In this document: positions 4,746 to 64,000 of the stretch, piece after piece | Numbering within the stretch: the first letter of the stretch is position 1 | How the letters are laid out: each line of letters begins with the position of its first letter | NCBI RefSeq assembly: GCF_004010195.1 | Contig: NC_057718.1 | Coordinates: 41,747,803-41,811,802, forward strand | DNA length: 64,000 nt | Source: Chiloscyllium plagiosum | Lineage: Eukaryota | Direction: 5' to 3' | Made by a program: the position numbers and the translations under genes | Notes under the pieces: generated by a model | Database searches by the model: none | What the model was told of the DNA's origin: nothing | What the model saw: only the letters and a program-made list of their open reading frames with translations

Positions 4746-6115
4746 TACGTGATTGTGTTTTGTTTCAGAATTCTAGCATCTCTGATATTTTGGGCTAACA
4801 TTGCTGGAAACAAGTAGACCTGATCTTACAATGCACAATCTTTTAAAACAAAATCTACATCTACTTAGTAGATGAAAAGCAGAAAACTTTAATCTTTGCC
4901 TCCCAACAGCTCTCTTCCATTAAAAAAAACAGCAAATACTAGAATCAAGAAGTGCAAAGTGATCAGTTTCAATTCAGAACCCCTTTTAACCCAACATTGT
5001 CACATATATTTGATTGGCAAGCTAAAAGATCTTTCTTTGCCACAGTCTCATAAAAATGAATGTAACGTGTGTAGACAAAATGAGCCTTTGATGTTTTGTG
5101 TCTATTCGCTGAAATGAACGTTGGACACGACTTGCGACCATGCGCAAAATTGAACCATTCTTGCTGGATTCAAGAAATGTATATGATAGCGTTATGCTAA
5201 CGAGATGCCCATCCACCATCATTCATTTTCTGAATTAGCCATGCAAAGGATACTCTTCTTATTTTAGGTCATTTAACCATTACATATATTGTATTTCTCT
5301 TCACTTATTGCATTTCTGACTCCGTGAAGACAGCTTTCATTTTTGTATTTTAATTTGCAAAAGGAAAATTTATGTTTGTGCTTATTGTAGACAGTCTATG
5401 GAGAAAGTAGACGCAATGGTTTTGTCTAATTTCTCCTTTACTTGTGAAATAAGTTAGTTCTATCTAGTTCAGTATCCTTGCAACACTTGACAGAATTATG
5501 TCCAGGAACAAGCCGTTGTTGTTTGATGACATTCTTTTGTTCGTGATTATTATAACAATTACGTATCAAATTTAATTACTTTGCAAAATGAGAAATATGA
5601 TATTGGTAAGCAGGAATTTTCTGATTGCTAAGCATAGTGTCAGTATAAAATGCACTCTGAAATAATATTAACATAGTGAAATATATAAATCAAAGCTATT
5701 CTTCTTCTGAGCTAAATCAATTGCTTTGATGATGTAGTTGATATATTTCTGTCTTCAGTAATAACTCATTGCAATTATGATATTTGCCAGCTAAGGTCTG
5801 ACCAGCTGAAAACATAGTGAAGGAACTGGGCAGTTATTGTACAGAACCAGAGGAGGTTTACTGGACAGACATTGAAATTATTGCATTGAAGACTGTGAAT
5901 TGCTGTGCAATGTAGAAAGGTGGTTCAAGAAATTGAGAATGGATTATGAAGGGGAAAGATTAGGTGCAATTGCAACGGAGGGGTGTGAAGGCTAATAGTT
6001 GATTCAACAATAAAGTACTTCACAGAATCAGAAAATGGGTACAGTACAGAGCAAGGCCATTTGGTCCATCATGTCTGTAATGGCTATTTGAGCATTTAAA
6101 CTTAATGCTGTGCTT

Positions 6116-6328
6116 CTGGATCAGTGGTGCTGGAAGAGCACAGCAATTCAGGCAGCATCCGAGGACAGGCAAAATCGACGTTTTGGGCAAAAGCCCTTTC
6201 CTGATGAAGGGCTTTTGCCCGAAACGTCGATTTTGCCTGTCCTCGGATGCTGCCTGAATTGCTGTGCTCTTCCAGCACCACTGATCCAGAATCTGGTTTC
6301 CAGCATCTGCAGTCATTGTTTTTACCAC
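6116..6328 (+). mobile_element. Short Penelope-like pLTR insertion with inverted 5' copy (fold-back) and 15-bp TSD
   Basis: TSD cttaatgctgtgctt at 6101-6115 and 6329-6343. Arms 6114-6198 and 6207-6291 are reverse complements with 1 mismatch. Sequence closely matches the PLE terminus at 63304-63435. Confidence 0.9.
6198..6231 (+). ncRNA. Minimal type I hammerhead ribozyme motif (intact core)
   Basis: tc-CTGATGA(6201-6207)-A-GGGC-tttt-GCCC-GAAA(6221-6224)-C-GTC-ga. Palindromic ACGU stem III; predicted cleavage after C6228; stem I only ~2 bp. Confidence 0.75.
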
Positions 6329-6451
6329 CTTAATGCTGTGCTTGCCATTTCCCCATAGCCTTGCATATTACTTCTGTTTAAATGGTTATCCATTGCCATC
6401 TTGAATGCTTATTTGATCCTGCTTTCACTACACTTCCACGCTGAGATATTT

Positions 6452-7928
6452 GTATCATCGATAGTCACAGGTGAGGTGCCGGAAGACTGAAGGTTGGCTA
6501 ACATGGTACCACTGTTTAAGAAGGGTGGTAAGGACAAGCCAGGGAACTATAAACCAGTGAGCCTGATGTCGCTTGCGGGCAAGTTGTTGGAGGGAATCCT
6601 GAGGGGCAGGATGTACATGTATTTGGAAAGGCAAGGATTGATTAGGGATAGTCAACACGGCTTTGAGCGTGGGAAATCATGTCTCACAAACTTGATTGAG
6701 TTTTTTGAGGAAGTAACAAAGAGGATTGATGAGGGCAGAGTAGCAGATGTGATCTATATGGACTTCAGTAAGGCGTTCAACAAGGTTTCCCATGGGAGAC
6801 TAGTTAACAAGGTTAGATCTCACAGAATACAGGGAGAACTAGCCATTTGGATACAGAACTGGCTCAAAGGTAGAAGACAGTGGGTGGTAATGGAGGGTTG
6901 TTTTTCAGACTGGAGGCCTGTGACCAGTAGAGTGCCACAAGGATCGGTGCTGGGTTCTCTACTTTTTGTAATTTGCATAAATGATTTGGATGCGAGCATA
7001 AGAGGTACAGTTAGTAAGTTTGCAGATGACACCAAAATTGGAGGTGTAGTGGACAGCGAAGAGGGTTATGTCAGTTTACAACAGGATCTTGACCAGATGG
7101 GCCAATGGGCAGACACGTGGCAGATGGAGTTTAATTCAGACAAATGCGAGGTGCTGCATTTTGGGAACGCAAATCTTAGCAGGACTTATACATTTAATGG
7201 TAAGGTCCTAGGGAGTGTTGCTGAACAAAGAGACCTTGGAGTGCAGGTTCATAGCTCCTTGAAAGTGGAGTTGCAGATAAATAGGATAGTGAAGAAGGCG
7301 TTTGGTATGCTTTCCTTTGTTGGTCAGAGTGTTGAGTACAGGAGCTGGGAGGTCATGTGCGGCTATACAGGACATTGGTTAGGCCACTGTTGGAATATTG
7401 CATGCAATTCTGGTCTCCTTCCTATCGGAAAGATGTTGTGAAACTTGAAAGGGTTCAGAAAAGATTTACAAGGATGTTGCCAGGGTTGGAGGATCTGAGC
7501 TATAGGGAGAGGCTGAACTGGGTGGGGCTGTTTTTACTGGAGCGTTAGAGGCTGAGGGGTGACCTTATAGAAGTTTACAAAATTATGAGGGGCATGGATA
7601 GGATAAATAGACAAAGTCTTTTCCCTGGGGTCGGGGAGTCCAGAACTAAAGAGCATAAGTTTAGGGTGAGAGGGGAAAGATATAAAAGGGGCAACTTTTT
7701 CACACAGAGGGTGGTACGTGTATGGAATGAGCTGCCAGAGAAAGTGGTAGAGCCTGGTACAATAGCAACATTTAAGAGGCATTTGAATCTGTATATGAAT
7801 AGAAAGGGTTTGGAGGGATATGGGCCAGGTGCTGGCAGGTGGGACTAGATTGGGTTGGGATATCTGGTTGGCATGGAGGGTTTGGACTGAAGGGTCTGTT
7901 TCCATGCTATACATCTCTATGACTCTAT
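6452..7928 (+). pseudogene. 5'-truncated young CR1 (HER1-like) LINE with RT domain, frameshifted
   Basis: ORF 6494-7441 has the motifs PGNYKPVSL, QHGF, YMDFSKAF, VPQGSVLG, KFADDTK and DLGV. Frameshift near 7357 into RPLLEYC. Tail ctctatgactctat ends at ~7928. Confidence 0.95.
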
Positions 7929-10229: not shown

Positions 10230-12569
10230 CCTCTAAATATAAATCCCTTTTTGGTCAATAATAGTCCCTACTCCTCATTTTACCACCCTTTTACTATTGA
10301 TGTGCTTTCAGAAGACTTTAGAACATTTCTGTGTTTTTTCTCATAAAATATCTTTGCTTCTCACATGCTTTTTCAGCTCTGTTCTGAACTTTCTGCATTC
10401 AGCTTAGTTCTCAATAGCATTACTGCTTAAAACCGGTTATAAGCACACTTTTTGTGCCTCAACTTAATTTGCATCTCCTTTAACATCCAACAAGCTCTGG
10501 GTTTATTTGTCCCATTTTTCCCACCTCAAGGAATGCACCTTGACTGAGCCCAAACCAACTCCTCTTCTCAAAGACAGCTGGAGATGGTCAATAAATTCTA
10601 GCCTAGCCAGTGACACCCATATCCCACATTCTATATCCGTGGGTGATTAAACAAAAGGTAGTCCATTATTCAACTGTTTCTCCTGCCAACCTTTGGATCC
10701 AGTCTATCTAGGCCAGCTCTGTTCTTGACTTTTCATTGTCATCCTAAACCTTATGATAGAACAATCACTCCCTCCTAATTGTTTCCTCACTGTCACCACT
10801 TGCTCCACCTCATTTGAAACAGATAGAGTGCTTCATCCTTTTTGAGCTGGACACAGCTGCTGGATGAAATTCTCCTGGACATTTTAAAATTTACTTTATT
10901 TATTCATTTATGGGATATGGGCATTGCTTGCTGGCCAGCATTTATTGACCATCCCAAATTGCCCTTACAAAGGTGGTGGAGAGCTGCAATGTGTTATAAG
11001 TTGAACCACAAAGCCCTTAGTGAGGGAATTCCAGGATTTTGACCCAGCAACAGTGAAGGATATATTTCCAAGGCTGGATGGTGATTGATTTGGAGGGAAA
11101 CTTGCAGGAGGTGGTATTCCTAGGAATTCCTTTGAGATGGAAGCAGTCATGGGTTTGGAAGATGCTGCCTAAGGACCTTTGGTGAACTTATGCAGTGCAT
11201 CTTGTAGATTGTACTCACTGCTGTTACTAAGTGTTGGTGGTAGAGGGAGTGGATGTTTGTGGATTTGATGCCAATCAAGTGGGCTATTTTGTCCTTGATG
11301 GTGTCAAGCTTCTTGAGTATTGTTGAATCTGCATCCATCTAGGCAAGTGGGGAATATTCCATCACACTACTGCCGTGTGCCTTGTAGATGGTGAATAGAC
11401 TTTGGGGACCAGTAGGTGAGTTAAACACTGCAGTATTCCTAGTCTCTGACCTGCTGTGGTAGCCATTGTGTTTATCCTGTGAGTCCAGTTGAGTTTCTGG
11501 TCAATGCTAAGTCTAAGGAGGTTGATAATGGGGATTCTGTGTGGCTAACGCCATTGAATGTTAAGGGGCAGTGGTGAGATTGTCTCTTATCAGAGATGAT
11601 TATTGCCTTGCATTTGTGTGATGTGAATGTTACTTGCCATTTGTTAGCCCAAGTCTGGTTATTGTCCCGATCTTGTTGCATTTGAACATGGACTGCTTTA
11701 TGATGGAGGGAAGGTCATTGATGAAGCAGCTAAGGATAGCTGGACTTGGAAAATCCCCTGAGGAGCCCTTACAAATATATCCTGGAGCTGACATGACTGA
11801 CTTCCAACAATCGCAACCATTTTCCTATGTGCTAGGTATGACTCCAACTGGCAGAGAGTTTGCCCCCTGATACCCATTGACTTCAGTTTTGCTAGGGCTC
11901 CTTGATGCCACACTTGGTCGAACGTGGCCTTGATATCAAGGGTTGTCACTCTCAACTCACCTCTGGAATTCTGCTCTTTCATCCACGCTTGAGCCCAGGC
12001 TGTAATAAGGCCACAAACCCAAACTGGGCATCACTGAGCCGGTTGTGATGAGCAGCAGGTGCTGCTTGATAGCACTGTTGATGACACCTTCCATCACTTT
12101 GAATAGTGATTAAAAGTTCACTGATTGGGTGGTAATTGGTCGAGTTGGATTTATCCTGCTTTTACAAATAGGACATACATGAGCAATTTTCCACATTGTC
12201 AGATAGATGCCAATATTGGAACTGTATTGGAACAGCTCAGCTAAGGAAGCAGCAAATTCTTGAGCACAAGTCTTCAGTACTATTGCTGGAATGTTGTCAA
12301 GACCCATAACCTTTGCATTACCCTCCTACCAGTGCCTCCAACCATTTCTTGATATCATGTGGAGTGAGTTGAATTGACTGAATACTAATATCTGTATTGC
12401 TGGGGATCACTGGAAGAGGCCAAGATGGATTTTCACTTCTAGCTGAAGATTGCTGCAAATGCTTCAGTCTTATCTTTGGAATGATGTGTTGGGTTCTTCC
12501 ATTATTGAGGATGGGGATATTTGTGGAGCTTCCTCCTCCAGTGTGTTTAATTACCAACCACCATTTGTG

Positions 12570-12712
12570 CCATTGGATAGGTACATGAAAAGGAAAGGTT
12601 TGAGGGATATGAGCCAGGAGCACGCAGGTGGGACTAGATGAGTTTGGGATTATGTTTGGCATGGACTGGTTGGACTAAAGAGTCTGTTGCAGAGCTGTAT
12701 GACTCTATGACT
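12570..12712 (+). mobile_element. CR1 3' tail inserted in the minus-strand LINE
   Basis: LDRYMKRKGL, then gcaggtgggactag and a tatgactctatgact tail. Confidence 0.8.
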
Positions 12713-13779
12713 GAAAGTGACAGGATAGCAGAGTTTAGAACTGATCCGTTGGTTGTGGGGTCACTTATGCTTTGTCTATCACTTGCTGCTTACACTGCTT
12801 GACATGCAAATAGTCCTGTTTGGTAGCTTTACCAAGTTGACACCTCATTTTTAGATAAGCCTCATGCTGCTCCTGCCACGCCCTCCTGCACTCTCCATTA
12901 AACCAAGGTTGATCCCCTGGCTTGAATGTAATTGTTGAGTTGGGAATATGCCAGGCCATGAGTTTGCAGATTGTATTGATAGATGCCCAGTTTTGATTTG
13001 CTACATCTGTTTGTATTCCGTCCAATCTAGCTCTGTGATAGTGTCTCACAACATGATGGAGGGTTTTGTCAATATGAAGACTTAGTCTCTACAAAACTGT
13101 ACGGTGGTCACTCTTACTCATAGACAAGTAAGTGTGCAGCCAGGAGATTCGTAATTATAAGGTGAAATATGTTTTTTCCCCTTGTTGGTTCTCTCACCAC
13201 CTGCCGCAGAGCCAGTCTAGTCGCTATGTCCTTTAGGACCAGACCACTCAATCAGGAGTGCTGCTGCTGAGGTATTCTTGGTATTGGGCATTGAAATCCC
13301 CCACCCAGAGCACTTTCTGCACCCTTGCCACCTTTAGTACTTCCTCCAAGTATTGTCCAACATGGAAGAATACTGATTCAACTGCTGAGGGAAGACAGTA
13401 TGTGGTAATTAGCAGGAAGTTTCCTTGCCCATGTTTAACCTGAAGCCATGAGACTTCATGGAGCCTGGAGTCAATGCTGAGGATGTCCAAGGCAACTCCT
13501 TCCTGACTGTATACCACTGTGCTGCTGCTGCCTCTGCAGTCTAGCTGCTGGGACAGGACATATCCAGGGATAGTGATAGTCGTGCCTGGAAACATTGTCT
13601 GTAGGTTTGATTACATCGAGCTGTTGCCTGAGTAGTCTTTAAGACTGTTCTCCTAATTTTGACACTAGATGTTAGTCAGGAAGATTTGCATGGTTTACAC
13701 AGCTGTTTTTACCAGTGTCCTATCCAGCACCTACGTCAATGCCAAGTGGTCAGTCCGGTTTCATTTCTTTGTTGAGAGT

Positions 13780-14081
13780 GGTTTGCTAGACCATTTTAGA
13801 GTGCAGTTGATAGTCAACGACATTGGTATATGTCTGGAGTCACATATAGGCCAGACTAGGTGAGGAATGGCAGATTTCCTTCCCTGAAGGATAGCAGTGA
13901 ACCAGATGAACTTTTCTAACAATCAACAATGATTGCATGGTCATTAGAAGATTCTCAATTCCGTATATTTGTAGTTGAAGTCAAAATCCATTATCTGCTG
14001 TGGTGGGATTCGAACCCAGAACATCAGCTACATTTCTAGATTATTAGTCTAGAGATAATAACACTCGGCTATCAACTCCCC
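13780..14081 (-). promoter_or_regulatory. tRNA-like Pol III internal promoter plus Deu-domain-like core (SacSINE1-like head)
   Basis: Minus strand: A box TAGCCGAGTG (14062-14071), perfect B box GGTTCGAATCC (14006-14016), then catctggttcactg..ccttcagggaaggaaatctgcc..tctggcctatatgtgactccagac, which I recognise as Deu-like. Confidence 0.7.
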
Positions 14082-14396
14082 ATGCATAATCTAGGATTGC
14101 TCGTCTCTCCCTAACTCTACCATTATCCCTGTATTGAGTTAGGCAGACTGATTAACAATTATAGCTTTTCTTTACTCCTTTGACATGAAAAATGAGATTA
14201 TTATGAAGAGAAATAGTGTAGGACTTAGCTTTGATCATATATTTTAACAAAGGTAATCTGATATTTAAAGAAGTAGTTTGCTGTCATATTGAGAATTTTA
14301 TGCCACAATTAGAGAAGGAACACATGCAAGTCACTACCGAGGTGGACAGGACAGAAATTTGGGCAGGACTTTTGTTTTAAAATAATTCACAACATG

Positions 14397-14762
14397 GGTG
14401 GCACAGTGGCTCAGTGGTTAGCACTGCTGCCTCATAGCACCAGGTAACCGGGTACCATTCCAGCCTGGGTGACTGTGTGGAGTTTGTACATTCTTCCTGA
14501 GTCCGCGTGGGTTTCTGCTGAGTGCTCCAGTTTCCTCCTACATTCCAAAGATGTGAAGGTTAGGTGGATTGGTCATGCTAAATCACTCTGCAGTGTCCAG
14601 GGATGTGTAGGCTTGGTGGATTAGCCTTGGTAAATGCAGGGTTACAGGGATAGACAGGGGACGGGGGGCCTGGGTCTGGGTGGAATGTCATTTGGAGGGT
14701 CAGTGCAGACTTGATAGGCTGAATGGCCTCTATCTGCAATGTAGTGATTCAATGATTCTATG
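14397..14762 (+). mobile_element. HE1-like V-SINE
   Basis: A box tggctcagtgg, V-domain gtggagtttgtacattct...gtgggtttc, and a CR1-like tail ending gattcaatgattcta. Confidence 0.85.
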
Positions 14763-14764
14763 TG

Positions 14765-15600
14765 GTCATCGCTGGCTGGTCCTTTCATTATTACTCAACC
14801 CCAATTGCCCTAGTGAAGATGTTGATAAGCTGCCTTCTTGAATAGTTGCAGTCCTTGAGATGTAGGGACATCAATAGCACTTTTCAGAAGGGAAATCCAG
14901 GATTTTGACTCAGCAACTGTGAAGGAACATCGATATAGATCCAAGCCAGGATGGTGTGTGGCTTAGAGGTGGTATTTGCATATGATGGTATTCCCACAGA
15001 TCTGTTGCCCTTGTTCTTTTAGGTGGCAGGGAATGTTATTTGGAAATACTGTTAAATCAGGCTTGGTGAATGAATGCAGGGGATTCATTGATTGCCATGC
15101 TGTTGAATGTCAAGGAGAAGTGGTTACATTCTCTCGTGCTGGAGATAGCCAATGCTTAGCACTAGTGTAAAGTGAATATTGTCACTTATCAGCTCAAGCT
15201 TGAATAGTGTCTTGCCGCATATGGAGGAAGCAAACTGTTTTTTGTGCCTGAGCAAATTTTTAAGGCAGTGCTTAGGATATGGAATGCACTGCCTAGAATT
15301 GTAATAGAGGCAGTTTTAGTTGAGGCATTCAAGAGGACATTGGATGAATGTTTGGAAAAATTAATCTGCAAGGATATGGAACAAAGCAGGAGTTTGACAC
15401 TAGGAAAAGGTGCTGCTACAGGTACAAGGCACCAAATGGCCTCCATTATTTGCTGTAAGTCACCTCTGCGATTCTGAATCATGAATGGTACTGAACTCGG
15501 TACAATCATCAGAAAATATCCCCACTTCTGAACTTATGATAGAAGGAATGTAGTGAATGAAGAAGATGAAGATGCTTGGGTTGGATACTACCCTAATAAA
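14765..15600 (-). mobile_element. Deleted fragments of the 10896-14081 LINE family, with a plus-strand CR1 tail at ~15235-15478
   Basis: Shares aatccaggattttgactcagcaactgtgaagga with 11028-11060. The ORF at 15244 reads RIWNALP...FKRTLD. Confidence 0.65.
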
Positions 15601-15664
15601 CCCCTGCAGAAATGTTGGTAACATTCCATTTTCATATTGAGGATATCCTCCATCTTTGGCCTGG

Positions 15665-15878
15665 CACTAAAGGTAAAATCACCTTGGTCCCAGAGGACCA
15701 TCATCTCATTACGGAGAGATGACTGGTTGTGGTTTAACCTGACAGTCACCACACCACAGACAGAAGAAAAGTTGAGAAGGAGAGTTCTTTACAATAATCA
15801 CAGCCAATGCAGGAATTGAACCGCAATGTTGATTCACTTTGCATCACAAAGTGGCCATTCAACCAACTGAGCTAACCA
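15665..15878 (-). mobile_element. tRNA-derived SINE, second family
   Basis: Minus strand starts ggttagctcagttgg (A box) and has ggttcaattcc (B box). The body differs from the V-SINEs. Confidence 0.7.
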
Positions 15879-16144
15879 ACCCTAACCAACCACAGGATAA
15901 ATCGAACAGTCTTCAAATAGATCTAGCAAATCAAAACTGAGTATCCATGAACTGCTATGAGGCATCAACAGAAGCAGAACTGTATTCAATAATCATTTTC
16001 GCCTCAAGGCCCAGTGTATTACAACAACTCTTCCATTACCATCGAGGCAGAAGATCAACCCTGGTCTATTGAAGAGTAAAGGAGCAATACCAGGTACTTC
16101 ACAAACTAGGTGTCAATCTGATGAAGCTATGGCATAGGACTAGA

Positions 16145-17280
16145 ACTTAAGACCCTAAAAAGTAGGTACAGGAGTGGGCCATTAGGCCCCTCAAACTTGC
16201 TTTGCCATTCAATAGCATCATGGCTGACCCAACATTCCTCATGTCCACTTTCCTGCCCTTGCCCCGTAACCCTTGATTCCTGTTCTGATCAAGAATCTAT
16301 CTATCTCAGCCTTAAATATATACAAGTACTCTGTCCCCACAGCTCTCTGTGGCAAGGAATTTCAAAAGCTGATAAACCTTTAAGAGAAGAAATTCCTCCT
16401 CAAATCAGTCTTAAATTGGTGTCCCTTGCTTCTGAGATGATGTGCTCTGGTCATTGACTCTTCCACGATGGGAAACAACTTCTCAGCATTTAACTTCGCA
16501 AGCCTCTTAGAAATCATATATGTCTCAATTAAATTGCCTCTCATTCTTCTAAACTCTGTGAATCCCATCTGTTTAGACTCTGTTCATAAGACAATCCCTC
16601 CCATACCAGGCACGATCCTAGTGAACCTTCTCTGAACCACTTCCAACTAAATGATATCTTCCTAATATAGGGGACCATAACTGCTCATAGTGCTCCAAAC
16701 TGATCTCACCAGGACCTTGTACAGTTGCAGTAAGACTTCCCTACTCGTATACTCAAAACCCTCTTGAAGTAAGGGCCAACATTTCATTAGTTTTCCTGAT
16801 TACCTGCTGCACCCATGTGCTACCTTTCTGTGTTGCGTGCACAAGCACCTTCAAGTCCCTTTGTGTTGCAGCTTTCTGCAATTTTTCTCTATTTAAATAA
16901 TATTCTGTTCTTTTGTTCTCCTTTCCAAAATGAACAACTTCAAATTTTCACATACATACCCCATGTGCCAACTTGTTTGCCCACTTACTAAACCTATCAA
17001 TATCTCTCTGTAAACTGTTTTATGCCCCGGACAACCTGCCTTTCCACCTATTTTTGTGTTGTCTACAAATTTGGTGACAGTACATTCACTTCCCTCCTCC
17101 AAGTCATTAATATACATTGTAAACAGTTGCAGTCCCAGCACTGATCTCTGGTGAACCCCACTGGGCACAGGTTGTCAACCTGAACAAAGATTCCTTATCT
17201 CCATTTACAGTTTCCAGCCTATTAGCCAATTCTTAATCCATGCCAATATACTATCTCCATTCCATAGGCTCTTACCTTAT
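16145..17280 (-). mobile_element. 5'-truncated CR1 LINE (RT to 3'UTR), decayed
   Basis: SGVHQRSVLGLQLFTMYINDL...KFVDNTKIGG (16893-17168) and RRMRGNLIETY...RRNFFS (16380-16568). Confidence 0.9.
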
Positions 17281-17841
17281 CGTTTCATGTCAAACAGAGG
17301 AAGCAGTATGCAATAGATAGGCTGAGCCATCCCACAATCCTCAGCTCTGCAGGCCCTCCACATCCATTTGGGAATGATGGTGGATAATTAAAGAACTCAT
17401 TGAGTACATTTAAAACTTGAGATGAATAGGTTCTTGAGTATCAAGGCGATCAAGGGTTATGGGAAGAAAGTGGGAGAATGGGGTTGAGAAACTTAACAGC
17501 CATGATTGAATGGTGGAGCTGAATCAATGGGCTGAAAAACCTGATTCTACTCCTTTGTCGCTTGGTCTTATGGTCTTAACTAACAGGGCAGATGCTCTAC
17601 AAATATCCCCAAGCGCAACAATGGGGAAGCCCAGCACATTGGTGCAAAACACAAGGCTTAAGTATTTTTATCCATCTTCAGCCAGTCATGCCAAGTAGGT
17701 GATCCCACTGAGCCTCCTCCTTATGACCCTAACATCACAGATACCAGTCTTCAGATTCATGTCTTTTTCAAAAGCCAGCATTAAATCTGCCTCCATCATA
17801 CCCTCAGGCAGTCAATGTTATCCCCTGTTGCACTTCATGTC

Positions 17842-18319: not shown

Positions 18320-18672
18320 GGCGGCGTGATAGCTCAGAGGTTAGCACTGCTGCTTCACAGTGCCAGGACCTGGGTTTGTTTCCAGCCTCGGGCAACTGTG
18401 TGTGTGGAGCTTGCGCATTCTCCCCATGTCAGCGTGGATTTCATCCGGGTGCTCCGCTTTCCTCTCACAATCCAAAGGTGTGCAGGTTAGGTGAATTGGC
18501 CATGCTAAATTGCCCATAGTGATCAGGGATGTGTAGGTTAGATGCATTGGTCAGGGGTAAATGTAGGATAAAAGGGTAGGGAAATGGGTATGAGTGGGTT
18601 ACTGTTTGGAGGGTCGGTGTGGACTTGTTGGGCTAAAGGGCTTGTTTCCACACTGTAGGGATTCTATGATTA
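18320..18672 (+). mobile_element. HE1-like V-SINE
   Basis: Head tagctcagaggttagcactgctgc, V-domain, and tail ctgtagggattctatgat. Confidence 0.88.
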
Positions 18673-25028: not shown

Positions 25029-26277
25029 GAGTCAATAAGAGTGGTGCTGGAAAAGCACAGTCGGTCAGGCAACGTCCGAGGAGCAGGAGAGTCGATGTTT
25101 CGAGCATAAGCTCTTCATTAGGAATGTGGGTTGGAGGGTGCCAAGGGGACTGAGAGATAAATAGGAGGAGGGTGGGGCTGGGTATAGGTACATGAAATGG
25201 GGGGTGATTGACGGTGATAGGTCGGAGCAGAGAGTGGAGTGGAGAGGTTGGAAAGAAAAAGGATAGGCAGGACAGTTCAAGAGGGCGATGCTGAGTGAGA
25301 GGGTTGGATCTGGGATAAGGTGGGGGGAGGGGAGATCAGGAAACTGGTGAAATCGGCATTGATTCCATATCGATGGAAGGTCCCAAGGCGGAAGATGAGG
25401 GGTTCTTCCTCCAGGTGTTGGGTGGCTAGAATTTGGTAGTGGAGGAGGCCCAGGATTTGCATGTCCTTGGCGGAGTGGGAGAGAGAGTTGATGTGTTCGG
25501 CCACAGCAGTGGGGTTAATTGGTGCCTGTGTCTCAGAGATCTTCTCTGAAACATTCCGCAAGTTGGCGTCCTGTCCTGTAGAGGAAAACACATCGAGAGC
25601 ACTGGATACAGTAGATGAGGTGGTTGAAGGTGCAGGAAAATCTTTGCCAGATGTGGAAGGATCCTTTGGGGCCTTGGATGGAGGTGAGGAGGGGAGGTGT
25701 GGGCGCAGGCTTTACACCTCTTGCAGTGGCAAGGGGAGGTGCCAGGAGTGGAGGGTTGGTTGGTGGGAGACATAGACCTAATGAGGGAGTTGTGGATGGA
25801 ATGTCTCTGCAGAATGTAGATACATGTGGGAAGGGAAATATGTCTCTGGTGATGGAGTCTGATACATTGTATTCAGAGGTTGATGGGGTGGAACGTGAGG
25901 ACTGAGGCGTTTCTGTCCTTGCTGCAATTGGAGGAGTGGGGTTCAAGGGCAGAGGTGCAGGAAGTGGAGGAGATGCACTGGAGGACATTGTTCACCACGT
26001 GGTAGGGGAAATTGCGGTACACCTCACCTTCTGCCTTGGGACCCTCCAACCACATGGAATCAATGTCAATTTTACCAGTTTCCTGATCTCCCGTCCCCCC
26101 ACCTTATCCCAAATCCAACCCTCCAACTCAGCACTGCCCTCTTGAACTGTCCTACCTGTCCATCTTCCTTCCCACGTCTCCGCTCCACCCTCTGCTCCGA
26201 CTTATGCTGCCTGAACAGCTTTTTCAATGCTCCACTTTTTGACTCTGGTTTCCAGCGTGCGCAGTCCTCACTTTCTC
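25029..26277 (-). mobile_element. Penelope-like element (Neptune-type GIY-YIG), 5'-truncated with inverted 5' segment and 16-bp TSD
   Basis: TSD ctataattctttgata at 25013-25028 and 26278-26293. Relic protein CKRCKAC...FSCTFNHLIYCIQCSRC..LY..TGRQLAECFREDL. 26020-26200 is an inverted copy of ~25215-25400. Degenerate HHR at 25091-25125. Confidence 0.92.
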
Positions 26278-29106: not shown

Positions 29107-30839
29107 TTTTCCAGATTGATATGCCCAAAACCTCAAACCATGCTATTATTGTGGTCCAATCAGTGATTTGTATAAAGCCAACATTATTCATTTTCCCGAC
29201 TATAAAATCCAAAATTCTCCCTGTTTGTTTGAGTGACATTTTCTGCCTATCCTGATACTGACATGAATGTATTCAATTTTTTTTCACTGTTTATTGACAT
29301 CTTTCAAGACATGTCACTTAGATATACTTCTTGTCTTTACATCCCGTGACTATGACCTCTCACCTGTCCACATTAAATTGCACTTGCTAACTGCATGTCA
29401 ATTATACTAATCTGCCTCTTTCTGAAGTCTTTTACAGTCTTATCTCAAATTGTCAAACCATATACTTTTGTGACATCAACGTATTTAATATTGTGATCCT
29501 ATATCCAAATGTAGATTAGTTGACTATTTTGCTTCACTTAACTCTCCCACTTAGCCAGGCTCAACTTGAGGAACAGAGTAACATATTTCTCCTGGCCACT
29601 CTGTAGTTGCATGTGATGTTCATCATAACTGTTTTTCATACAGCAAGGTGTTGTTTGGTGGATGGGTCTGCAGGTGCATATCAGAGGGGAGGCAGTTTGG
29701 GATTTGGAACATGGAACATGGAACAAGAAGCTGGGGAAGAACCCACAACCTGGGAGGTAGCTTTTTCCTTTCTTTTAAGGTCCAGTCTAAATTCCATTTT
29801 TAGAGCTTCGCAAACATCTTACAAATATTATTTTTCCCTTGTTATTTTATTTGTTTGGGCCTGTCATTTCAGTCTTTTAACTACAAAACTGTGTGTTTTA
29901 ATGTCTTTCCATTATTGTGCTGATTGATTTCAATGCCATCTGAGTTCTCTATTTGACAATGTGTAGGCCATTCAACCCATTGATTGGTCAGATGTCCACC
30001 TTGATCCTTATTTTTATCCTTACTGAACTGTTTGGCTATTTTTGCTTTTTGTTCTAACAAAGGATCGACACTGGAGACAATAACCCACTTTTTCTCTCTG
30101 CATGGATGTTAACTTCCCTGCGGTGTTCACCTCTGTTTTTACTTCAGAATCCCAGCATTTGCAGTTTCCATTTCTTTTGTAGTTGCAAATGTCGGTTTTG
30201 GTTCACTGACCCAAGGATAGACTGAAAGACTTGATGGATGATAGAAAGTCATGAAAACTAAAACCAAAGGGAAATATAACATTTTTAAAAATTAAATTAA
30301 ACCAAGTCATTTGTTAATTGGAAAACGAATGAACAATTTAGCTCAAAAATGGAAGAAACCTCACTATGGACTGGATTAGTGTAGTTTCTGGTTTCCTTTC
30401 ACTGCCAACCAGAATGACTAACATAGCAGACAGCAAATTACATACATTGTTCAATGTTTACAGCAATTTCTTCCATCTAGAACTGGAGATGTAGTGATCC
30501 CATTCTGAATCTCACGATCCACCCCTCCACCTTCCTTGCACCATGGCAGAAATACGTTTTGTTTTAAAGAATGCGTTGCCAAGGTTTACTGAGCTTTATT
30601 GGACAGCATTCCCCCAGACCAGTGACTTCTACCACTGAAAGAACAAGATCATGGGAATATCATAACCTCCAGGCTCTCCTCTAAATTACACATCATTCTG
30701 GCTGTTCCTATTTATCATGTGATCCCTATCCTGGACTTCCCAATCGAGCACCAAACTGAGAGCCCCTCCAGCATAAGGAAAACTCTATTAGCACATTTCT
30801 CAGTTCAACTAGAGGTGGACAATAAATGCAGCATTGTAT

Positions 30840-31451
30840 GTAAGGTGACAGGATTGGTGGAGAGATTGGTTAATAAAGCATACAGTATCCTCATATTTTA
30901 TTAATAGGGACATCAAGAACAAGGTGTTTATATTGCACCTGAATAAGTCATTCGTTAGACCTCAGCTTGAGTATTGTGTATAGTTCTGGGTGATACACTT
31001 CAGGAATGATGTGAACTCACTGAAATGTAGAAGAGATTTACAATAATGTTTCCGGAGATGGGAAACTACAGTTATGAGGAAAAATTGGAGACACTGGGAA
31101 AAGGAGGAGATGAAGAGGAAAATGTAAAGAGGAAATCTGAAAGGAGTTTTCAAAAATATGAACAGTTTGGACCAAGTGGATTGGGAGGATCTGATACCAC
31201 TCATAAAAGTATTGAGAAGGAGAGGGCACAGAGTTAAAGAAATTTACAAAGGAAGCAAATGCAATGCAAGGAAAAGCTTTGTCTCACGGCGAGTAATTAA
31301 GGTCTGGAACACACAGTCTGGAAAAATAATAGTGGTAGTTTCAATCAAAGCATCCAAGAGGGTATTATATGGTTAAAAGAATAGAAACATTCTACACGGT
31401 TTTGAGGAAAAGGGAGGAGAACAGCATTAAGTCATAATGGTCATTTGAAGT
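30840..31451 (+). mobile_element. Old CR1 3' fragment interrupted by a PLE
   Basis: gttagacctcagcttgagtattgtgta (VRPQLEYCV) and RVIKVWN; the sequence resumes after the TSD at 31772-31786. Confidence 0.75.
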
Positions 31452-33582: not shown

Positions 33583-33898
33583 TCATAGAATCATAGAATC
33601 CAAACAGTGTGGAAACAGGCCCTTCAGCCCAACAAGTCCACACCGATCCTCCGAAGATTATCCATCCAAAGCCATTCCCTGCTACTCTACATTTACCTCT
33701 GAATAATGCACCTAACCTATACATCCCTGAACACTATGGGAAATTTAACATAACCAATTTACCTAAACTGCACATCTTTAGATTATGAGAGGAAACCCAA
33801 GCAGACATGGGAGAATGTGCAAACGCCACACAGTCGCCCGAGGCTGGAATTGAACCCAGGTCCCTGGCGTTGTGTGGCCGCAGTGCTAAACACTGAGC
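33583..33898 (-). mobile_element. HE1-like V-SINE
   Basis: Minus strand: gctcagtgtttagcactg, B box ggttcaattcc, partial V-domain, and a (gattctat)n tail. Confidence 0.88.
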
Positions 33899-54585: not shown

Positions 54586-55213
54586 TGCTTCCAATTAAAC
54601 CTGTTGGACTATAACCTGGTGTTGTGTGATTTTTAACTATGTTTCTCTAAACATTATTGAGGCTGGCCCAATGAACATTTCAAAACTAAGTTTGTTATTT
54701 GATAACTAAAATATGAATGGTTATAGAATAAAGTTGGGTAAATGGAGTTAAGATATAAATAATTTATGATCCAATTGAATGATGGAACAGGCTAAAGACA
54801 AAGATTCACTTCTGTTCCATATTCTTAAGCAACATAGCCTCAGCACCAATCTTAAGTATTGATAGTATTTAGTTTCCATGCAATACTGGTGCATGCTACA
54901 GGAGTGTATACAAATTTCAGTGCATGAATAGCCCTTCCAGTGAAGAAACATCCAAGATGTGAGTCTGTGCAGTAAGGAAGTCACAAACCCAATTCTTTAC
55001 ATGTTATTGTGTTCGTAGCCATAAAATAAAAATATTTTACCTCTGTACTTGTGGCATCAATGAACCAATGTAGTTCATTGGACTATTTATAGTGCTTTTG
55101 TGGAGAAATAAATATCAGATCTCCACTAGCATGACTTCCCAACATGGTATGAGCAGGCAGTTCCTATTGATTTTCTGATAATAACTGACTAAAATTCTTT
55201 TTAAAATTGTTTT

Positions 55214-55553
55214 GGGATGGCACGTGACTCAGTGGTTAGCACTGCTACCTCACAGCGCCAGGGAACTGGGTTTGATTCCCGCCTTGGGTGACAGTCAGTG
55301 TGGAGTTTATACATTCTTCCTGTGTCTGTGTGGGTTTCCTCCGGGTGCTCCAGTTTCCTCCCACAATCCAAAGATGTGCAGGTGAGGTGAATTGGCCATG
55401 CTAAATTGTACACAATGTTCAGGGATGTGTAGATTAGGTGCATTAGTCAGTGGTAAATGTAGGGAAATAAGTCTGGGTGGGTTACTTTTTGGAGGGTTGG
55501 TGTGGACTTGTTGGGCCTAAGAGCTTGTTTCCAGACAGTAGGGAATCTAATCT
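55214..55553 (+). mobile_element. HE1-like V-SINE
   Basis: Head gactcagtggttagcactgct, B box ggtttgattcc, V-domain gtgggtttcctccgggtgctccagtttcctcccac, and tail aatctaatcta. Confidence 0.9.
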
Positions 55554-58102
55554 AAATTTTCTCATAGCTTGTTCAGTTTAACTTTGAGCGTAACCAATAT
55601 CAAGTTGTCAGTGGGGGCTGCTTTTATATTGTGTATGCAGGATTATGAAAAGAGGGAGTATAACATGCAAATTGGAGGGCTCCTGTGGTACAGTGATGGG
55701 TCCACTGAGTCATGAAGGGTTCGGGTCTCATCTGCTCTTGTGCTGTGTCACAGCATATCTGATTAACAGTATCCTAAAATGCAAATGCACATTGGTTCAC
55801 TTTCTGACTACAAAGGCAGTCTTATGAACATAGAGTAGCTATAGCATAAAAGCAGCTGGTGTAAAGCTCTACCAAATGAAGTTAACAGATTAAAATTAGA
55901 AGAAAATTTGAGTTGCTCAATCTGATGCCATTGATGCTTTATTAAAAGAAAACTGATTGCCTCATCAGTATTTTTCAATAATCAAAACTCCACAGCTAAT
56001 CAAAGGGCAGTATGGCTCCCAACTCAGAACAGAACTAAATATTACTCACTTTGCTATAGCATCAAATAGTAACAGATCTTACAGAATCATGCTTCTCACC
56101 AAAGGTTTGCAATATTTATTCCTTGAGGAAACCTAACTTCACAGCTAACGGTGGTTGAGTTCACAAATGGTTATAAATAGAGACTGTGTCATTCATGGCA
56201 GTGAGATATGATAAATATCTCTACTCTTGAGGCTGATCAGATAACTCACGATTGGAGAAGTCACAAATGAATTATGGTCAGTCTCATGAGTGGAGATATT
56301 CATCATATCTCACTGCTGACCACAACATAATCTATCTATGACACAGTATGTTTTTGACTTAAAAATGAAAACAATTTTAAAAAGAATTTTAGTCAGTTAT
56401 TGTCAGAAAATCAAAAGGAATTGCCTGCTCATATCATGTTGGGAAGTCATGCTAGTGGAGATCTGATGTTTATTTCTCCACAAGAGCACTATAAATATTC
56501 CAACCTACATTGGTTCATGGATGCCACATATACCAGAGGTAAAATATTTTTATTTTATGGCTACAAAAACAATAATGTGTAAATAATTGGGTTTGTATCT
56601 TCCATATTGCACAGACTCATATCTTGGATGCTTCTCCACTGGAGGGGCTATTCATGCACTGAAATTCTCTGTTACATAATGGTTGGCTTATACGGAATGT
56701 AAAATGATGTCTGAGAGCAGATTATCTACCGAAATTCTTAGTTTCAACTCATATGTTATCATAAGGGATGAAATGGGAGGAAATAATTTCTAGGAAGATT
56801 TCCTTTGTTGCTTTGTGTTATAAAATGATAACTGCATTCTTTAGTATGTCTATTTCTGACTTTTTTAAAGTTAGGAAATACTGGAAATATTAAAGAAATG
56901 CAACTATCTTTAAATAGGAGCTAACTCCTGGTCAATTAGCATGGAGTTATTCAAGCAAAAAATGAAATGGACACTGTAAATACTGCTGCCTGCATGCATT
57001 GTTGTAGTGCAAGGGTTATGCCATCACCAGAGGTACCTGACATAACTACAATAATCTGTCACTTACATACACATTCCATTTCACCCACATTTCCTAGTGT
57101 TTGCTTGCCTTTAATTTGGGTCTCCACACAATATTCCTGATTGAAGAGAGGCCATTCACAGGTCTCCAGTCCTGTGCACATACCTGTTTGTAATAGCCAC
57201 TGAGTGATGTGTGAACATTTCTACACTCGACTGGATTTTAGTTTTTTCTTCTTGTGGGAATGAAGGCTCTTGTTGCTTCTCCAAAAGGAAATCAAGACTT
57301 CTCCTTGTAAAGAATTGCACCATTTTGTGATCTGGCACAGTAATCACTATATCATCATAGTATTGGAAATTTGGGATATGAATTTGCATATGATAATCTT
57401 AACAAACTTGATATTCACTAAACTCTAGATTCGGTCTGTACTTCTCTATTTATATCTTTCTTTTAAGAAGGTTCTTAAAAGCTAGGGTTTTTTGACCTAG
57501 CATTTGACCTAGCTTTTCTCATACCTATATGTTTCGTGCCAAATATTGTTTGATAATGCTTCTGTGAAATGCCTTAAGATGTTTTATTGCATTAAAGATG
57601 CAATAATGCGAGCTAGTGTGTCTGTGAAAAGGTTAAGAATCAACTAAGCGATAGTCTTAATGACTGTTATGTCTAATGCTCATACGCAACTTGAAAAGTC
57701 AAAAAAATCAAACTCTACTATTAAAATACTTAAATGTAAATAGTTGCTCAGTTGGCATGGACAACTATGCATGCTTTTGCTTCTGTCTATTAAGAATGTA
57801 CTCTGATGTGTGTGATAGTATCAGCAAACCTGTTTAGGAAAGAATGTAGAGGAAAATATCAGGATTACAATGACATCACTTGCCAGTCAGAATATATTAT
57901 AGGCTTTTGGGTTAATACTGCTTCTGTATGTTCACAGTTCCAGAAAATGTGCGACCTAAATCAACAAGACCACAGATGTCAGAATCATCTTCAGCTACCA
58001 AGTCCTTAACAGGGGGAAAAAAAGTTTCTTTTCACGGGCAGAACTTTTATTTAGCTGGTTTGCAGAATCGTTTTGTCACTGCTCTCCTTCATCTCCCGGT
58101 AG

Positions 58103-63303: not shown

Positions 63304-64000
63304 GGTAAAAACAATGAGTGCCGATGCTGGAAACCAGATTCTGGATTAGAGTGGTGCTGGAAAAGCACAGCCGTTCAGGCAGCATCCACGAAGCAGGAAA
63401 ATCGACGTTTTGGGCAAAAGCCCTTCATCAGGAATAGAGGCAGAGTGCCTGCAGAGTGGAGAGATAAATGAGAGGCGGGGAGAAAGTAGCATAGAGTACA
63501 ATAGGTGAGTGGGGGTGGGGATGAAGGTGATAGGTCGGGGAGGAGGATGGGGGAAGGTAACACAGAGTACAATGGGTGGATGGGGGTAGGGATGAAAGTG
63601 GTAGGTAAGAGAGGAGGGTGGAGTGGATAGGTGGAAAGGAAGATAGGCAGGTAGGACAAGTCATGGGGAGGAGACCGCATCGGGAGCAACGGATACAATA
63701 AATGATATTAGTGAATGTGCAGGTAAAACTTTAATGGATGTGGAAGTCTCCTTTAGGGCCTTGGATGGAGGTGAGGGAAGAGGTGTGAGTGCAGGTTTTT
63801 CAATTCCTGCGGTGGCAGGGGAAGGTGCCAGGACGGGAGGGTGGGTTGTAGGGGGGCGTGGACCTGACCAGGTAGTCATGGAGGGTCTTTGCGGAAGGCG
63901 GAAAGAGGTGGGGAGGGAAATATATCCCTGGTGTAGGGGTCCGTTTGGAGGTGGTGGAAATGTTGTCGGATGATTTGGTTTATGCGAAGGTTGGTAGGGT
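63304..64000 (-). mobile_element. Penelope-like element (Neptune-type) 3' end, running off the window
   Basis: Minus strand reads TSIQGPKGDFHIH*SFTCTFTNIIYCIRCSRCGLL, then an internal deletion, then the pLTR with HHR ttc-CTGATGA-A-GGGC-tttt-GCCC-aAAAC-GTC (63400-63434). Tandem duplication of period ~71 bp at ~63488-63606. Confidence 0.9.

Follow-up and report, generated by a model that had tools for sequence, protein, structure and literature searches.

A shark Zenon retrotransposon with a tRNA-type head: a possible coding LINE transcribed by RNA polymerase III

Introduction

In the passages available from two reviews, long interspersed nuclear elements (LINEs) are assigned to RNA polymerase II (Pol II) and short interspersed nuclear elements (SINEs) to RNA polymerase III (Pol III), which is held to be too weakly processive for long elements (PMC10886601, PMC5786205). 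A locus in the shark Chiloscyllium plagiosum raises the question of whether this division always holds. Within a 64,000-nucleotide (nt) stretch of contig NC_057718.1 (assembly GCF_004010195.1, positions 41,747,803 to 41,811,802 of the forward strand; hereafter the window, with coordinates counted from its first letter), a minus-strand LINE appears to open with the tRNA-derived promoter of a SINE. An initial annotation, made from the sequence alone, had read it as a LINE without ORF1, the first open reading frame (ORF), carrying a Deu domain, and as a possible parent of the shark element SacSINE1. We asked what this element is, whether the head belongs to it, and which polymerase would use that head. 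The LINE copy is almost certainly a dead, full-length elasmobranch Zenon, a CR1-group element of ~3.3 kb with a single ORF encoding an APE endonuclease and a reverse transcriptase (RT).

A full-length LINE copy opens with a tRNA-like head

The decayed copy runs on the minus strand from 14081 to 10896 (3186 nt, or 3046 nt without a 140-nt insert) and comprises, from 5′ to 3′, a tRNA-like head, a non-coding core, APE, RT and an A-rich end. Public contigs at 80% identity heaped over ~10900-14081 and returned to single-copy depth outside it in all three DNA runs; in one of them (X1) the depth was 2301 at 13963-14081 against 9.9 at 14082-14200 at the 5′ end, and 33079 at 10869-10987 against 15.9 at 10750-10868 at the 3′ end. 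In each of three organisms (A, B and C), near-identical contigs spanned the core-APE junction and both ends of the copy, so the insertion is not an assembly artefact and is older than the split among the three. No target-site duplication was found around it (97% of shuffles scored equally well). The copy is laid out as follows.

13995..14081, minus strand: tRNA-derived head (contig depth, box search, fold, by-eye match to RhiTyp_Zenon-1)
14062..14071, minus strand: A box at +11 (loose match, decayed here; by eye, the whale-shark consensus has the canonical form)
14006..14016, minus strand: B box (strict consensus match)
13910..13994, minus strand: A-rich spacer of the 5′ untranslated region (UTR), of a length that varies among species (by eye)
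13775..13909, minus strand: conserved core of the 5′ UTR, non-coding and not a Deu domain (motif tests, fold, protein matches, consensuses)
13683..13774, minus strand: linker, which in other copies encodes an Arg/Lys-rich basic peptide in frame with APE
13070..13682, minus strand: APE endonuclease relic with frameshifts and stops
12573..12712, plus strand: inserted CR1-type 3′ fragment in opposite orientation, not part of the LINE
11493..12316, minus strand: reverse transcriptase relic with internal deletions
11150..11492, minus strand: C-terminal region of the ORF, with homology to intact relatives
10896..11010, minus strand: 3′ tail, which contains AATAAA (10946-10941) and ends in a short A-rich stretch

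The strict B box at 14016-14006 was the sole match of its kind on either strand of the window, and a 6-bp stem with a 7-nt loop occupies the anticodon position, in agreement with the tRNA-like, minus-strand head with A and B boxes first proposed for this locus. ARAGORN called no tRNA in the head, and its folding was no better than that of shuffled sequences (z -0.9), as expected of a decayed head. With Rfam, no family, ribozymes included, matched the head or the core, the head giving no more than a tRNA-Sec match at chance level (E 7.8). A tRNA-derived head with A and B boxes is a hallmark of SINE2 elements; these are also short and non-coding, whereas the element described here is 3.2 kb long and carries APE and RT.

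The copy is collinear with a published family consensus from base 1, and it is this, rather than the flanks, that supports the proposed single insertion. Host CR1 APE sequence had been thought to resume on both sides, and this was not confirmed: none of the four flank frames tried gave a Pfam match. The downstream flank (10700-10890) weakly resembled an APE C-terminal motif (tblastn, E 0.033) and may be read as the C terminus of a further APE domain; the upstream flank gave no match. The 140-nt CR1-type fragment, which the initial annotation had not mentioned, lies inside the Zenon copy, indicating that CR1 was active after the Zenon insertion.

The head is shared by the Zenon elements of sharks and rays

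Zenon has been reported from five elasmobranchs, the coelacanth and hagfish, in all cases without ORF1 and with a poly-A tail, in the portion of the source available (Stuart et al. 2026, PMC13343379); in the window copy just a short A-rich end is left of that tail. By eye, over the first 400 nt given in Table S2 of that work, all seven elasmobranch Zenon consensuses, from five species and 2886-3314 nt long, begin with the head, core and linker (RhiTyp_Zenon-1, CarCar_Zenon-1, ScyCan_Zenon-1, SquAca_Zenon-1/2/3 and HypSab_Zenon-1). Window position 14081 corresponds to base 1 of RhiTyp_Zenon-1, with 55 of the first 67 nt identical. Across the first 400 nt of each of ~1,000 CR1-group consensuses in the supplement of that work, five B-box 10-mers occurred six times, always in elasmobranch Zenon rows. 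All three hagfish and coelacanth consensuses lack the head over the same span, as judged by eye and on 5′ ends that may be imperfect.

Further support came from protein searches, whose matches included whale-shark gene models predicted ab initio at other loci. When 77 proteins were compared with 13685-14081, P0030, a whale-shark model, matched the core at 37.7 bits (at most 23.9 in 20 shuffles) and continued into APE, and P0027 and P0034 matched the linker (26.2 bits each) and likewise continued into APE, P0034 as far as RT. RT pieces of the family were also present in gene models of Mobula, Scyliorhinus, Heterodontus and Heptranchias.

Several points weigh against this account of the junction. 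The comparison of consensuses was made by eye and is limited to their first 400 nt, the gene models may conceal introns, and the collinear 5′-region matches of P0011, P0018, P0026 and P0029 fell within the range of shuffles. At 13703 only one or two contigs at 80% identity cover the copy, so the contigs do not show the junction in other copies; this low cover is attributed to small deletions in the LINE copy, which reduce mapping there. The low contig depth across 13606-13724 is what a chance juxtaposition would predict, that is, an independent SINE lying just upstream of a 5′-truncated LINE at this locus only. Apart from the deletions that lower mapping in that interval, the same junction recurs in the consensuses that come from five species and in gene models at other loci; this refutes the explanation, to which we attach next to no probability. 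The junction is therefore not peculiar to this locus, and the full-length consensuses share its 5′ end and lack ORF1, rather than having an ORF1 and another 5′ UTR; a family of single-ORF LINEs with a SINE-type tRNA head, as the initial annotation had envisaged, is borne out.

An RT phylogeny had been suggested as a check. In a tree of 24 rows, with no labelled Zenon, L2 or Crack reference among them, the window RT fell in a clade with shark and ray pieces (support 100/99), apart from the CR1 of the window, and this clade was sister to unnamed intact ORFs (99/96). Vertebrate CR1 elements (HER1-type) usually carry an esterase ORF1; here the RT lies outside the CR1 of the window and there is no ORF1. 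The identity with the consensuses over the first 400 nt, the missing ORF1 and an ORF2 with APE and RT are those of elasmobranch Zenon, described in the available text as elements of ~3.3 kb with APE and RT, without ORF1 and distinct from vertebrate CR1 (PMC13343379). Unlike these published elements, the window copy is decayed, ~250 nt shorter and interrupted by the CR1 insert.

The family and its ORF1-less single ORF were thus already known; the tRNA-type head is deposited in the consensuses and has apparently gone unremarked. Neither "tRNA" nor "polymerase III" occurs in the main text of PMC13343379, and the available part of the whale-shark genome preprint (10.1101/443036) mentions CR1-Zenon-like LINEs a single time, with no occurrence of "tRNA". 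In the open full-text literature (Repbase, Dfam and subscription journals being outside the scope), we found no account of a tRNA-headed or Pol III-driven Zenon, nor was any complete coding LINE described there as having a tRNA head. What is new here is the identification of this LINE copy as Zenon, the rejection of its Deu label and the T-run controls within the window.

Other searches for relatives yielded little. A first homologue search gave one match among 97 candidates; two of the 23 matches of a representative search, P0023 and P0024, were dropped as unrelated repeat proteins; the sole locus among 84 candidates in a metagenome scan was a bacterial false positive; and viral scans found no relatives. 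In five NCBI models (P0013, P0041, P0045, P0048 and P0051), Zenon ORF pieces are spliced into shark or ray host-gene models, which may reflect mis-annotation or exonisation.

A single ORF without ORF1 and without an in-frame AUG

APE, RT and the C-terminal region are collinear with the intact relatives P0040 and P0047 over 13610-11150, the intact relatives of the ORF being 960-1050 amino acids long, and Pfam RVT_1 matched at 11701-12030 (E 1.1e-5). The collinear order of APE, RT and 3′ tail behind the head, as initially described, thus stands; APE itself starts nearer the head than the ~13600 first given, its first motif lying at ~13685, 399 nt from the 5′ end of the copy. Since only these 399 nt precede APE, and the longest AUG-started frame within them has 34 codons, the copy has no ORF1. 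Rex1 is another LINE without one. The available description of ZfL2-2, a single-ORF L2 element, likewise presents an autonomous LINE lacking ORF1, from another clade and with no tRNA head reported (PMC3880073).

How translation would begin is less obvious. The APE frame contains no AUG upstream of APE, and a conserved AUG in the linker, at 13764, is in a different frame. An ORF start at the core AUG at 13823 was rejected on two grounds: the core-linker spacer differs between species by non-multiples of three, and in several consensuses the frame of this AUG runs into stops (by eye).

The conserved core is not a Deu domain

The core (13780-13900) folds modestly better than shuffled sequences (z -2.27; 5 of 200 shuffles) and, by eye, is better conserved among the Zenon consensuses of different species than the spacers that flank it. 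These properties suggest a role in cap-independent initiation. The initial annotation had instead called the core Deu-like and the LINE the parent of SacSINE1 and the source of DeuSINEs. There are grounds for such a view: a tRNA head, a conserved core and a LINE tail make up the general plan of DeuSINEs, two contigs join the core to the tail, and the published alignment, in the part available, spans only ~130-140 nt of a vertebrate domain given as 330 bp (PMC4824008). Nevertheless, two motifs of the published Deu alignment found no match in 13780-14081 at up to three mismatches, their matches across the window were at chance level, and the core bore no by-eye likeness to the AmnSINE1 and EbuSINE Deu rows in the supplement excerpt (PMC7245038).

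The tail is equally at odds with this parentage. In the excerpts available, SacSINE1 is a 463-bp element with an L2-type tail (PMC5499810, PMC2746220, PMC3747384), whereas the tail here ends a Zenon-type ORF; full-length L2 is given as not found in galeomorph sharks (PMC13343379, in part). Moreover, the Zenons outside the elasmobranchs have no head, although Deu is far older. We regard a Deu parentage as very improbable. Because the core is not Deu and the family is not the partner of SacSINE1, nothing follows for the origin of DeuSINEs, contrary to what had been proposed, and the finding has no bearing on that of the Deu domain. Two other conserved SINE domains, Meta and UCON3, were likewise set aside: their published alignments showed no by-eye likeness, and motifs of the core had no match in either supplement.

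T-run scarcity and the transcribing polymerase

Runs of T act as Pol III terminators, so a Pol III unit must avoid them, and the scarcity of such runs in the Zenon copy fits transcription by this enzyme. On the sense strand, 21 runs of at least three T were observed where 33.6 were expected (a count this low arose in 5 of 1000 shuffles), with no depletion of A, C or G runs. As controls, we used five CR1-type stretches of the same window (3692 nt, against 3046 nt counted for the Zenon copy), which were enriched in such runs (79 against 48.7 expected). Runs of at least four T numbered 4 in the Zenon copy and 17 in the controls (p 0.012), and runs of at least five numbered 0 and 8 (p 0.008). Each of the four runs in the decayed copy is exactly four T long, and at least one of them (13986) is absent from the consensus. 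The bias extends to codons: the Phe codons TTT and TTC were used 5:10 in the Zenon copy and 26:7 in CR1 (p 0.004), the other T/C codon pairs showing no significant difference between the two (p 0.14). By eye, TTTT is absent from the first 400 nt given for all seven elasmobranch Zenon consensuses, which represent one lineage rather than independent cases, and present in all three of the others.

Taken with the head, these patterns lead us to consider it somewhat probable that Pol III is the working polymerase and transcribes the element from its head. A number of observations pull the other way. Runs of at least four T were not significantly scarce against base-composition shuffles (64 of 1000 as low), and dinucleotide shuffles left the three-T count borderline (p 0.033) and the four-T count unremarkable (p 0.27). 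A second, fragmentary copy in the window showed no significant depletion (11 against 15.4). The controls come from one other family, whose own codon usage could account for some of the contrast. The AATAAA, which lies ~45 nt before the 3′ end, is consistent with conventional polyadenylation of Pol II RNA. RNAs made by Pol III are uncapped. In the part of PMC10886601 available, moreover, Pol III processivity is held to restrict SINEs to 100-700 bp.

On the strength of such observations, Pol II could be the enzyme that makes the RNA, from a core promoter or by host read-through, with the head a passenger, an insulator or TFIIIC site, or an RNA-stabilising structure, and with codon bias accounting for the T runs. 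Published passages describe LINEs as Pol II units (PMC10886601, PMC5786205), and non-LTR retrotransposons (those lacking long terminal repeats, LTRs) are said to use Pol II (PMC10886601); in the copy itself the AATAAA lies close to the 3′ end, the four-T depletion is not significant against shuffles, and a capped RNA would be easier to translate. Against this, T runs alone are depleted, and on the sense strand alone. The boxes are kept at +11 and ~+70 in the available shark and ray consensuses while the spacer and anticodon change (by eye), and several upstream AUGs with none in frame suit cap-dependent scanning poorly. We consider Pol II transcription a serious but unlikely explanation.

The head could also serve RNA processing, RNase P cutting the tRNA-like fold out of a host read-through RNA and thereby giving a precise 5′ end. 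As far as their available 5′ portions go, the consensuses start within a few bases of one another at the head, and there are parallels: self-cleaving ribozymes do this work in R2 and RTE, and the accessible text of PMC5786205 reports ribozyme-made 5′ ends in six LINE clades. The Zenon copy has no cloverleaf, however, and processing leaves the scarcity of T runs unexplained; we judge it distinctly unlikely.

A poly-A single-cell RNA run (~2% sampled) held 1232 reads, five of them at at least 99% identity, on both strands and without a shared start; such a run is uninformative on which polymerase is at work. The head is a real, family-level feature, an apparently unremarked SINE-type promoter in a known family, and its use by Pol III is plausible on these sequence patterns.

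A proposed life cycle and its relation to known retroelements

The tRNA-derived head would act as the Zenon promoter, from which Pol III would transcribe the full 3.3 kb; this would explain the avoidance of Pol III terminators (at least four T), and, the promoter being internal, each full-length insertion would carry a copy of it. The uncapped RNA might be translated with the aid of the conserved core, either from a non-AUG codon or from the AUG at 13764 with a subsequent change of frame, and the resulting APE-RT protein would integrate this RNA by target-primed reverse transcription that starts at the 3′ tail. Since the Zenons of hagfish, coelacanth and butterflies lack the head, it looks like a derived gain, and it may have been acquired by a template switch onto tRNA or SINE RNA.

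A SINE would arise from such an element by simple internal deletion. Of this part of the initial annotation, little was seen: the core was joined to the tail in 2 of the 12 joints shown among 439, and no common breakpoint was seen. The full reading, of elasmobranch Zenon as an autonomous coding Pol III LINE with a captured tRNA-type promoter, a terminator-purged coding strand, a core for cap-independent non-AUG translation and a SINE obtained by deletion, stands in our estimation evenly poised between right and wrong.

The closest published systems, as far as the excerpts available describe them, each share part of this plan. Lepidopteran Zenon and Persaeus, which derives from it by internal deletion, have the clade name in common, with lengths of 3.3-3.5 kb and short derivatives built from 5′ and 3′ ends; Persaeus is stated to lack homology to tRNA, 5S and 7SL as well as a Pol III promoter (PMC6740152). 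In the bipartite-LINE model of SINE origin (Kojima 2018, PMC5786205; RTE, Vingi; Bov-tA), a tRNA head is likewise combined with the 5′ and 3′ parts of a LINE. There, the deletion precedes the gain of the head, which is added to a non-coding element, and RTE and Vingi are the sole contributors, whereas in Zenon it sits on a complete, coding CR1-group LINE. SacSINE1 and the DeuSINEs share the shark host, a head derived from tRNA and a conserved core (PMC5499810, PMC4824008, PMC7245038); compared by description, SacSINE1 differs in being 463 bp long and non-coding, with an L2-type tail like L2-2_CM or CR1-4_DR. The TRIMp3 elements Cassandra, Helenus and Ajax are also retroelements other than SINEs with a small-RNA-gene Pol III promoter; they differ in being short, non-autonomous LTR elements that encode no protein (PMC10886601). 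Zenon tails are also borrowed by bivalve SINEs (PMC11481361).

If the Pol III reading is right, the division between Pol II LINEs and Pol III SINEs would be broken by a coding LINE that is abundant, 3.3 kb long and equipped with a conserved tRNA head, and this LINE would provide a natural long Pol III messenger RNA with testable translation. It would also offer a second route to the birth of a SINE, in which a full LINE gains the head first and suffers the internal deletion afterwards. Many "SINE" matches in shark genomes may be Zenon 5′ ends.

Other repeats in the window

The 3′ tail of the LINE copy has three further copies in the window. The second Zenon copy (14745-17758) consists of oppositely oriented parts, with RT through to the tail on the minus strand (15615 to 14745) and, on the plus strand (~15630-17758), the stretch from the end of APE to the region before RT; it lacks ~600 nt and is broken up by later CR1-type and SINE insertions. 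Its layout resembles a 5′ inversion, presumably by twin priming, which is mostly known from L1. Two other 5′-truncated Zenon 3′ ends lie on the plus strand at 10564-10628 and 30540-30843, the latter looking much older. At 6443-7924 (plus strand) there is a long, fairly intact CR1-type RT with its 3′ end, which served as a control.

Another tRNA-headed short repeat, with a 51-nt internal duplication and a CR1-type tail, occurs at 14400-14760, 18329-18670, 33584-33863 and 55224-55549; it may be HE1 (V-SINE). Long inverted arms at 54913-56666 and 25217-26205, with two pairs of 133-136 nt (90-95%) and one of 187 nt (86%), are possibly the ends of DNA transposons or inverted duplications. Finally, a near-perfect hairpin at 6114-6291, with 85-nt arms of 99% complementarity and an 8-nt loop, is built of a repeat that is also found at 25035-25125 and 63345-63435.

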